In this document: in pieces, positions 10,049 through 10,830 of the stretch | How positions within the stretch are numbered: the stretch's first letter is position 1 | Layout: each line of letters opens with the position of its first letter | UHGV virus genome: UHGV-0102868 | Source: a virus | Length of the DNA stretch: 34,597 nucleotides | Direction: 5' to 3' (one strand) | Notes under the pieces: generated by a model | The model's input: the letters and a program-made list of their open reading frames with translations, nothing else | Told to the model about the DNA's origin: nothing | Database searches by the model: none | Translations under genes and position numbers: made by a program

Positions 10049-10131
10049 TTTTTTACGCATAAATTGCTTCAATTCCGGTATGCTTCGCAAAGCTGTATCG
10101 CGAGGCGAACCAAGCGCATGAACTTTACCAG

Positions 10132-10161
10132 AACCCGCCATTGAGCGGGTTTTGTTGTTTC
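10132..10161 (+). terminator. intrinsic terminator downstream of the Q-like gene (tR'-like candidate)
   Basis: CCCGC-cattga-GCGGG hairpin followed by TTTTGTTGTTT. Confidence 0.5.
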
Positions 10162-10374
10162 TGGGGGGGCATTTCGTTAAATGAAGCTGTGTTGTGCGCA
10201 ATTAGCTAATAACACGAATCGTGAATGTATATAATGCGCTTGTTCCTTCGATGGTGTATTCGAATAACGGATTACTGAATACAGCTATCCCATTAAGGGA
10301 ACACCGCCATCTGCTCATCGGGAAGAGCCGACCATCATTTAAGTGGTAGTTCGATACCTCGGTGGCGGTTCTGT

Positions 10375-10450
10375 GCCGACTTAGCTCAGTAGGTAGAGCA
10401 ACTGACTTGTAATCAGTAGGTCACCAGTTCGATTCCGGTAGTCGGCACCA
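10375..10450 (+). tRNA. tRNA-Thr (anticodon UGU)
   Basis: Cloverleaf read by hand: 7-bp acceptor stem GCCGACT/AGTCGGC, anticodon arm ACTGA-CTTGTAA-TCAGT, T-loop TTCGATT, 3' CCA. One mismatch in the T-stem. Confidence 0.85.
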
Positions 10451-10453
10451 TAT

Positions 10454-10528
10454 GCGGGTATCGTATAATGGTTATTACCTCAGCCTTCCAAGCTGATGAT
10501 GCGGGTTCGATTCCCGCTACCCGCTCCA
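10454..10528 (+). tRNA. tRNA-Gly (anticodon UCC)
   Basis: Acceptor GCGGGTA/TACCCGC, anticodon arm TCAGC-CTTCCAA-GCTGA, T-arm GCGGG-TTCGATT-CCCGC, 3' CCA; very close to glyT as I recall it. Confidence 0.85.
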
Positions 10529-10803
10529 GCATTTGAAATAAGCCTTATTGTATTGCAGCACTGGCGTATTTTTATTACGTGGGAGCAGGTTGTTTCGAAA
10601 AAGTATTCTGTTCTCTGGCTATGATTTGAGGCCAGGTGTAGCCTCAGTGCTGATTTTTTTACGGCAGCAGAATGGTGCATTATCGGTGGAGATTTTGTAT
10701 TTCCTGGCAGGGCCGGTGATGTGCCATCCCGATGTTGTAAACATCGCTAAAAATGACATTGAGATTAATCATATACTAAGCAAAACCTGGAAATACATCC
10801 TTT

Positions 10804-10830
10804 ACCGCCTCCACCGGGCGGTTTTTTTTA
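10804..10830 (+). terminator. intrinsic terminator downstream of the tRNA pair
   Basis: ACCGCC-tccacc-GGGCGGT hairpin followed by a T8 run. Confidence 0.5.

Follow-up and report, generated by a model that had tools for sequence, protein, structure and literature searches.

UHGV-0102868 is a virus genome of 34,597 nucleotides (nt), and this whole stretch is referred to as the window hereafter. The window is an intact Rac-family lambdoid prophage of Escherichia coli. The region under study, 782 nt in length (10049–10830), lies downstream of the gene of a Q-like late regulator and contains two transfer RNA (tRNA) genes, tRNA-Thr(UGU) and tRNA-Gly(UCC). The explanation that we favour, with a little more than even confidence, is that the two genes form a small host-derived cassette in a Q-dependent late leader, where they supply tRNA dosage for the phage genes generally. 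The evidence comes from the near identity of both genes to host tRNA genes, from a promoter-like module conserved at the stop codon of the Q-like gene, and from a phage-wide excess of the codons ACA and GGA.

Two tRNA genes derived from host thrU and glyT

Exactly two tRNA genes were called in the window by ARAGORN, both on the plus strand: tRNA-Thr(UGU) at 10375–10450 (anticodon tgt) and tRNA-Gly(UCC) at 10454–10528 (tcc). In Rfam, they score 73.8 and 67.8 bits, respectively, for RF00005, the gathering score of which is 29. The anticodons given by an earlier reading made from the sequence alone (the sequence-only reading) were thus confirmed, as was the separation of the two genes by 3 nt (TAT). 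CCA is encoded in both. The tRNA-Thr gene is identical to K-12 thrU at 76 of 76 positions, while the tRNA-Gly gene agrees with K-12 glyT at 72 of 75. Two of the 3 nt that differ are compensatory, since the sixth pair of the acceptor stem is U-A (U6, A67) in the phage gene and C-G in glyT, and the third is a U in the D-loop. Retained in the phage tRNA-Gly are G1-C72, C2-G71, G3-C70, U73, and the UCC anticodon, all of which count as tRNA-Gly identity elements, and its minimum free energy fold is a cloverleaf (z-score of −3.8). The flanks of the phage cassette are unrelated to the host thrU-tyrU-glyT-thrT-tufB operon. By their identity, both phage tRNAs are host-derived duplicates of thrU and glyT, and they would therefore add gene dosage and no new decoding. 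Under the established decoding rules of E. coli, thrU and glyT are the single-copy genes of the only tRNAs reading ACA and GGA.

Matches of the thrU/glyT type were found in 5421 of 5426 complete genomes, and the genomes that carry the prophage have 2–5 matching places, so that tRNA-dependent lysogeny, in which a phage tRNA replaces a host gene broken by integration, does not apply here. Among the phage copies, nine distinct tRNA-Gly variants occur, in which every stem substitution keeps pairing, either as a compensatory change or as a G-U pair. The cassette itself is 98–100% conserved, and its upstream flank is present in at least four unrelated versions.

Directly upstream of the cassette, at 10306–10369 (plus strand), a third tRNA gene survives as a decayed remnant. 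It was recognized by alignment to tRNA-Lys(ttt) of PhiR47_1, a phage in which this gene is intact; 54 identities were counted in 74 columns, and part of the variable/T-arm region is deleted from the remnant. It was rejected as a third functional tRNA, being called neither by ARAGORN nor by Rfam at E ≤ 10. Because of this remnant, the cassette can be regarded as what survives of a longer tRNA array. A faint likeness to the tRNA-Met of PhiR47_1 was also seen further upstream, possibly at 10236–10300.

A promoter-like module overlapping the end of the Q-like gene

The gene preceding the region (9506–10048, plus strand) encodes a protein of 180 amino acids that belongs to the DUF1133 family (Pfam, E = 5.5e-104) and also exceeds the Pfam threshold of Phage_antitermQ PF06530 (28.0 bits, as compared with a cutoff of 26). 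Its top sequence match in PDB is the Q protein of phage 21 (6p18), with an E-value of just 0.11, and its homologues carry the annotation of antitermination protein Q in Rac-SA53, 683R6, and others. Since the match to phage 21 Q is weak and the homologues are annotated as Q, the label "Q-like" is reasonable yet unproven; the protein is simply called Q hereafter.

To characterize the sequence downstream of Q, relatives ranging from 92% down to 31% in Q protein identity were aligned, and 30 loci from diverse Enterobacterales genera were scanned for the motif TANGCT, on which the register was anchored. TANGCT is present in 29 of these loci and lies 5–7 nt past a −10 hexamer in 26. The 26 loci share a common register: TTGNNN over the Q stop codon, 16–17 nt, the −10 hexamer, 5–7 nt, TANGCT, and an imperfect palindrome. 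A strong intrinsic terminator follows 35–90 nt beyond the TANGCT block in the loci of this register. The module was found in Escherichia, Citrobacter, Klebsiella, Enterobacter, Serratia, Xenorhabdus, Providencia, Proteus, and Edwardsiella, and the distant Q homologues show hexamers such as TTGACT-16-TATAGT (Providencia), TTGACA-16-TAGTAT (Edwardsiella), and TTGACT-16-TAATAT (Xenorhabdus). In the window, the corresponding candidate late promoter, similar to pR' and conserved in position across the Q homologues, lies at 10045–10073 (plus strand): the −35 hexamer TTGATT (10045–10050) overlaps the Q stop codon and is separated by a 17-nt spacer from the −10 hexamer TTCAAT (10068–10073). It is followed on the same strand at 10079–10095 by a conserved, presumably early-transcribed block, in which the −10-like TATGCT (10079–10084), a member of the TANGCT family, precedes the imperfect palindrome GCTTCGCAAAGC.

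The inheritance of this segment was followed among 80 IMG/VR loci whose Q is 92% or more identical to that of the window (the same-Q loci). Enough downstream sequence was available for 79 relatives, and in every one of them Q is accompanied by at least the 59 nt that directly follow it, while the segment 10166–10374 is swapped wholesale among relatives. A terminator is found in nearly all Q loci at the position equivalent to the first terminator of the window (terminator 1, see below), and in a large group of close relatives (the L020 type) an unrelated terminator has been substituted at the same distance from Q.

At lambda pR', a −10-like element lies in the first transcribed bases, and a short terminated RNA is made. 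As the conserved layout matches that of lambda pR', terminator 1 can be read as tR'-like, with the late promoter upstream of it. The Q-stop module thus looks like a lambda-style pR'/pause/tR' unit for the DUF1133-type Q family, of which no experimental characterization could be found. Promoter activity is predicted for this module, and by analogy with lambda pR' the TANGCT block may be a sigma-dependent pause or a Q-loading site. Because the promoter-like module is upstream of terminator 1, the tRNAs would lie in the Q-dependent late leader, as had been supposed by the sequence-only reading, which gave no location for the late promoter and did not recognize the tRNAs as host duplicates; polymerase reaching the lysis genes from this module must therefore transcribe them.

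Terminators and hairpins in the leader

Both flanking terminators of the sequence-only reading were recovered, the first with a stem that starts at 10129 instead of 10132. Terminator 1 (10129–10161, plus strand) consists of a 10-bp GC-rich stem (10129–10154) and a U-tract extending to about 10161, with a folding free energy (dG) of −16.1 kcal/mol and a z-score of −2.95. Terminator 2 (10804–10830, plus strand) consists of a 7-bp stem (10804–10822) plus T8 (dG of −11.1 kcal/mol, z-score of −2.78). Both stand out against shuffled sequences, and in the 683R6 version of terminator 2, the stem is unchanged and the loop is different. Terminator 2 had been placed before the holin gene; it is indeed upstream of that gene, but the holin starts 386 nt later, at 11216. 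Weak terminator-like hairpins were also found on the plus strand at 10626–10647, 11112–11127, and 11155–11168 (z-scores of −1.0, −1.8, and −0.4, respectively).

On the minus strand, a strong terminator faces terminator 2 (10852–10876, read from 10876 to 10852; dG of −17.5, z-score of −4.8). No shuffled sequence folds as well, and its changes relative to 683R6 preserve the stem. Neither a gene nor a convincing promoter was found for it, only two 8/12 promoter matches. A weaker minus-strand hairpin with U8 lies to its right at 10912–10950.

Promoter-like sequences closer to the tRNAs

Within TGTATATAAT (10226–10235, plus strand), a perfect −10 hexamer, TATAAT, can be read at 10230–10235. The sequence-only reading had listed it as −10-like; the hexamer is present, but no −35 can be recognized for it, and the promoter scan passed it over. 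It was also rejected as the late promoter pR', because the Q-stop module is the one that is conserved in distant Q homologues and inherited with Q. A block, GTGAATGT(A/C)TATAAT(G/C)CGCT, is common to the window and copy b of the phage SerU-LTIIb, and TGTATATAWT occurs at the same offset from Q in leaders of the 683R6 type.

Six sister leaders that diverge from one another in sequence contain a promoter-like pair with a spacing of exactly 16 nt, ending 62–76 nt before tRNA-Thr. The pair combines TTGAAA, TTGCGA, or TTGAAC with TATTAT, TATCAT, TATGAT, or TAATAT; the hexamers and the spacing hold, while the spacer sequences differ. These pairs are located at 2763–2790 in L004, 2407–2434 in L007, and about 1030–1060 in L005, and they are also found in L049, L061, and L099. 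A hairpin, GGTTCYGAGG...GAACC, follows the pair just before tRNA-Thr. The 16-nt-spaced element is absent from the leader of the window. In PhiR47_1, TTGCAG-17-TATTAT is found 9 nt ahead of the first tRNA.

Codon usage of the phage genes

The codon counts of 42 genes of the window (10,228 codons) were set against those of a host sample of 41,459 codons, drawn from 126 annotated genes in three regions of the K-12 chromosome. Per 1000 codons, ACA occurs 14.0 times in the window and 5.2 times in the host (2.7-fold; per-gene Mann–Whitney p = 6e-9), and GGA occurs 15.1 and 6.5 times, respectively (2.3-fold; p = 5e-6). The host figures hardly move when the rpo/rpl/tuf region is omitted. This comparison substantiates the earlier expectation that both codons are above the host level. 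When all 61 codons are ranked, ACA is 5th by ratio and 3rd by absolute excess, and GGA is 7th and 4th, respectively. Among the codons dependent on one minor tRNA, they are narrowly the top two by absolute excess: the excess per 1000 codons is +8.8 for ACA, +8.6 for GGA, +8.5 for ATA, +8.2 for TCA, and +7.2 for AGA.

The sequence-only reading had connected the tRNAs with AT-rich cargo or late genes, quoting the run GGA ATA ACA ACA ACA GGA GCA from the trkG-like moron. The run is real and in frame, although it lies at 12857–12877, not 12859–12879. A specific link to the cargo was not supported. The late genes without trkG and lom are nearly as enriched (ACA, 13.2 per 1000, 2.5-fold; GGA, 14.1 per 1000, 2.2-fold). 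The values of trkG (20.6 and 26.8 per 1000, respectively) are high, but not the highest in the window. Supply specific to trkG was rejected, since this gene accounts for only 10% of the ACA and 12% of the GGA codons of the late region, and its most deviant codons, namely ATA (13-fold), AGA, AGG, and TCA, are not read by the two tRNAs. The ACA/GGA enrichment is phage-wide, not trkG-specific.

Distribution of the cassette among relatives

Twenty of the 80 same-Q loci carry the Thr-Gly cassette; of the remainder, one has Met(cat)-Arg(tcg)-Arg(tct), and the others have no tRNA. The presence of the tRNAs does not track trkG, contrary to what the cargo idea implied: among the loci scorable for trkG, 7 have the cassette and 7 do not, and phi467, PhiR47_1, and JLK-2012 have the cassette without trkG. 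Conversely, phage 673R7 shares the Q/tR' module and matches the window from Rz through trkG and into the structural genes (11925–26553), with an nt identity of 98.5% there and of 96.6% in the tape-measure region, yet it has no tRNAs. With other types of Q and no trkG, the cassette occupies the same slot between Q and the holin gene in PhiR47_1, JLK-2012, phi467, and SerU-LTIIb, and it was also found in prophages of Escherichia ruysiae and Citrobacter braakii. The cassette is a mobile accessory of the Q-to-lysis slot that the phage can dispense with, and it is not tied to trkG.

Other contents of this slot were also observed. In Rac-SA53 (L002, 6992–8223), a pertussis-like toxin operon, eplBA, is located between Q and the holin gene, and the post-lysis slot holds LT-IIa where the window has trkG; the Q-to-holin and post-lysis slots are both hot spots of moron insertion. 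The Met(cat)-Arg(tcg)-Arg(tct) set mentioned above (L093, 3291–3540, same Q) is like the ileZ-argN-argO trio of the Shiga toxin (Stx) phages. In SerU-LTIIb (L005, 1122–1197), a gene annotated as tRNA-Arg(tct) is derived from thrU with five changes, including that of the anticodon from UGU to UCU, an apparent switch, judged from its sequence, toward the rare AGA codon. In a prophage of Serratia quinivorans whose Q is a distant one (L120, 4729–4957), the set found 1.7 kb downstream is Met(cat)-Leu(taa)-Gly(tcc). Finally, a contig binned as 'Candidatus Nanosynbacter' (L103, JARKOR010000130.1) encodes a Q protein 93% identical to that of the window, and it is probably a mis-binned contig of an enterobacterial phage.

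Favoured explanation and its alternatives

According to the favoured explanation, a promoter overlapping the Q stop codon (about 10045–10073) would start rightward transcripts, which without Q would end at the tR'-like terminator. After induction, polymerase modified by Q would pass terminator 1, the tRNAs, terminator 2, and the weaker hairpins, and the read-through would then cover the holin, endolysin, Rz, trkG, and structural genes. Host RNase P and 3′ trimming exonucleases would release the two tRNAs from the leader. The gene dosage of two single-gene minor isoacceptors would be roughly doubled in this way, coinciding with the bulk translation of phage genes that use ACA and GGA 2.3–2.7 times as often as the host. 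Q dependence, tRNA processing, and the translational benefit are steps that we infer. The benefit would be general to the phage genes and not for trkG in particular, and it is presumably modest and dispensable because most sister phages do not have the cassette.

Several observations weigh against this explanation. The candidate pR' has a weak −10 (TTCAAT), which the promoter scan missed because it has no A at position 2, and both promoter and antitermination activity are what we infer from sequence. Since sister versions carry a conserved promoter of their own, the tRNAs may not be expressed mainly by late read-through. Nor is the codon match exclusive: AGA, AGG, ATA, and CGA are higher by ratio, TCA is about equal, and the major capsid gene uses ACA at about the host level (0.10 of its Thr codons). 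The cassette is present in just 20 of the 80 same-Q loci, and any benefit from it must be small because 673R7 has the same late genes without the tRNAs. Moreover, the tRNAs adjoining the cassette in the window have decayed, and so has the Thr copy of JLK-2012, which is not called by ARAGORN and has two anticodon-stem mismatches on inspection of its sequence.

In the first alternative, the tRNAs would form a self-contained moron, bracketed by terminators and expressed from the repressed prophage by its own sigma-70 promoter. The upstream terminator would insulate it from basal pR' transcription, the downstream one would keep its transcripts out of the lysis genes, and the lysogen would have extra tRNA-Thr(UGU) and tRNA-Gly(UCC) at its disposal, for instance to translate acquired genes that are AT-rich. 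The exact 16-nt spacing kept by the promoter-like pair in six divergent sister leaders, the pair so close to the first tRNA of PhiR47_1, and the perfect TATAAT of the window, in a block conserved with SerU-LTIIb copy b, all agree with such a unit. So does terminator 2, which directly follows the tRNAs: a second terminator before the holin gene has an evident purpose only for transcripts initiated between the two. However, the version in the window lacks the 16-nt-spaced promoter, its TATAAT has neither a −35 nor a correctly placed TG and was not called by the scan, and promoter-like matches in the leader regions are no commoner than in shuffled sequence; the extra terminators could just back up tR' and keep the lysis genes silent. 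As the promoter evidence is weak for the window, we rank this explanation second and consider it possible but doubtful. Its extension to a lysogenic-conversion unit, terminator-insulated and driven by its own promoter (TTGAAA-16-TATTAT in the sisters, maybe the lone TATAAT here), appears improbable. If it were true, the lysogen would have more of two minor host tRNAs and better translation of AT-rich acquired genes, with beneficiaries such as trkG, lom, and the virulence genes of enterotoxigenic E. coli (ETEC), and the facing terminators at 10804–10876 would shield the lysis genes from constitutive transcription.

The patchy occurrence, the lack of the cassette in 673R7, the decay of adjacent tRNAs, and the uncalled Thr copy of JLK-2012 would also suit a near-neutral passenger, that is, host tRNAs gained by illegitimate recombination and spread among lambdoid phages without harm, with the sole consequence that patches of identity favour the shuffling of modules between the Q and lysis regions. 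Being 100% identical to host thrU, the tRNA-Thr gene is consistent with recent capture or gene conversion, and at least four unrelated contexts occur upstream of the cassette. Nevertheless, the window and about 25 independent copies retain intact versions of both genes, while the flanks have diverged beyond alignment, and the stem substitutions keep pairing. The cassette occurs in Escherichia, Citrobacter, and Stx/LT-II phages with its slot and orientation unchanged in every case, and both served codons are among those most over-used by the phage. We give this explanation little credence. Some phage tRNAs (in the T4 and T5 systems) are known to serve in counter-defence, replacing host tRNAs hit by anticodon nucleases or by toxins that target tRNA. 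For the cassette, this role seems very improbable: the copies would be equally sensitive to nucleases because the tRNA-Thr is identical to that of the host and the anticodon stem-loop of the tRNA-Gly is unchanged. Nothing in the window points specifically to such a role, and no tRNA-repair or anti-nuclease gene was found nearby by annotation, Pfam, or PHROG.

The late-leader explanation, which we retain, matters little past correct annotation, and it corrects the unsupported idea of trkG cargo supply. The Q-stop module nevertheless offers a concrete site for testing whether DUF1133 proteins are Q-type antiterminators, and the three-base difference between the phage tRNA-Gly and glyT allows late and lysogenic expression of the tRNAs to be distinguished directly.

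Prophage setting and neighbouring genes

Full-length matches to the 782-nt region were found in 37 complete E. coli genomes, with 100% identity in ETEC1730 and five others, and RefSeq genomes already carry annotations of the two tRNA genes. In ETEC1730, the annotation around the matching region is that of a full-length Rac-type prophage with the order recE, kilR, sieB, racR, ydaS/T, ydaV, DUF1367, YbcO, DUF1133, and two tRNAs, followed by essD/rrrD/rzpD, trkG, ynaK, terminase, and P22-type capsid and tail genes. In the window, Pfam identifies the DUF1367 gene at 8620–9219 and the YbcO gene at 9219–9509, upstream of Q. Downstream of the tRNAs and, like Q, on the same strand as they are, a P21-type lysis cassette extends over 11216–12389. 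It comprises the holin (11216–11431; Phage_holin_2_1, P21 holin S, E = 4.8e-35), the lysozyme (11431–11928; Phage_lysozyme, E = 2.2e-45), and Rz (11913–12389, with an annotated start at about 11925; Phage_lysis, E = 3.2e-53), all on the plus strand. The trkG moron follows on this strand at 12527–13984 (TrkH, E = 5.9e-144; trkG in the ETEC1730 annotation) and is AT-rich, with a G+C content at third codon positions (GC3) of 0.33.

Between the tRNAs and the holin gene, a "hypothetical protein" that the PGAP annotation of ETEC1730 places at about 10647–10937 is unlikely to be a gene, since neither Pfam nor PHROG gave a match for it and it spans terminator 2. The segment 10880–11160 is 97–100% conserved, only among cassette-bearing relatives, and carries no annotated function. 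The possibility that 10830–11198 is a remnant of the DLP12 nmpC porin moron was rejected, because homology to K-12 DLP12 starts only at 11199. No other Rfam family was found in 10000–11250, where the sub-threshold matches are at chance level (e.g., CyaR, 23.6 bits as compared with 47).

Further upstream in the window, a hok/sok type I toxin–antitoxin locus is located at 6471–6795 (Rfam sok, 118 bits; mok/hok open reading frame at 6583–6795). A pair consisting of a helix-turn-helix regulator and an ImmA/IrrE-like metalloprotease lies at 7026–7878, and a minus-strand AT-rich gene (GC3 of 0.30; phrog_9159, function unassigned) lies at 4986–6083. The pair and the minus-strand gene add to the cargo of the nin-like region, and their ACA/GGA densities exceed those found elsewhere in the window.

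Comparison with known systems

In phage SfI, tandem tRNA genes, tRNA-Thr(UGU) among them, directly follow Q and precede the lysis cassette, and one or both tRNAs of this type occur at the same position in Sf6, ST64T, PS3, and P21 (Sun et al. 2013; PMC3636060). SfI over-uses ACA relative to its host; the authors interpreted the phage tRNAs as supplementing rare-codon tRNAs, and they saw no obvious codon bias for the Asn tRNA (PMC3636060). The window resembles SfI in the tandem arrangement, in the position of tRNA-Thr(UGU) between Q and the lysis genes, and in the over-use of ACA. It differs in that the partner is Gly(UCC) instead of Asn(GUU), in that GGA is also enriched, and in that Q is of the DUF1133 branch (the Rac family), unlike that of the SfI-type phages.

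The closest counterparts are 683R6, phi467, PhiR47_1, JLK-2012, and SerU-LTIIb, whose cassettes are 93–100% identical to that of the window, with the same spacer, orientation, and slot, and whose GenBank records already annotate tRNA-Thr and tRNA-Gly. Unlike the window, PhiR47_1 has Met-Lys-Thr-Gly and JLK-2012 has Asn-Thr-Gly, with the extra tRNAs intact; phi467 is an Stx phage with stx genes; and the 683R6 type has the dedicated 16-nt-spaced promoter. In comparison with these sequenced cassette phages, the version in the window has just tRNA remnants and a lone TATAAT upstream.

The textbook parallel is the trio of tRNA genes, ileZ-argN-argO, that precedes stx2 in phage 933W as well as in other Stx phages and was reportedly described by Plunkett et al. 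in 1999. Like the cassette of the window, this trio places rare-codon tRNAs in a Q-dependent late leader between pR'/tR' and the late genes. Its anticodons (AUA, CGA/CGG-type, and AGA) are different, however, and its tRNAs are not simple host copies; the tRNAs of the window leave the codons most enriched in the phage (AGA, AGG, and ATA) unserved. The host thrU-tyrU-glyT-thrT-tufB operon is comparable in that tRNAs precede a protein-coding sequence in one transcript, but the phage has neither tyrU nor thrT, and its spacer is 3 nt, as compared with 8 + 85 + 116 nt in the host. Taken together, rare-codon tRNAs in a Q-dependent late leader are an ordinary feature of a kind already described for lambdoid phages, and the cassette of the window belongs to it.

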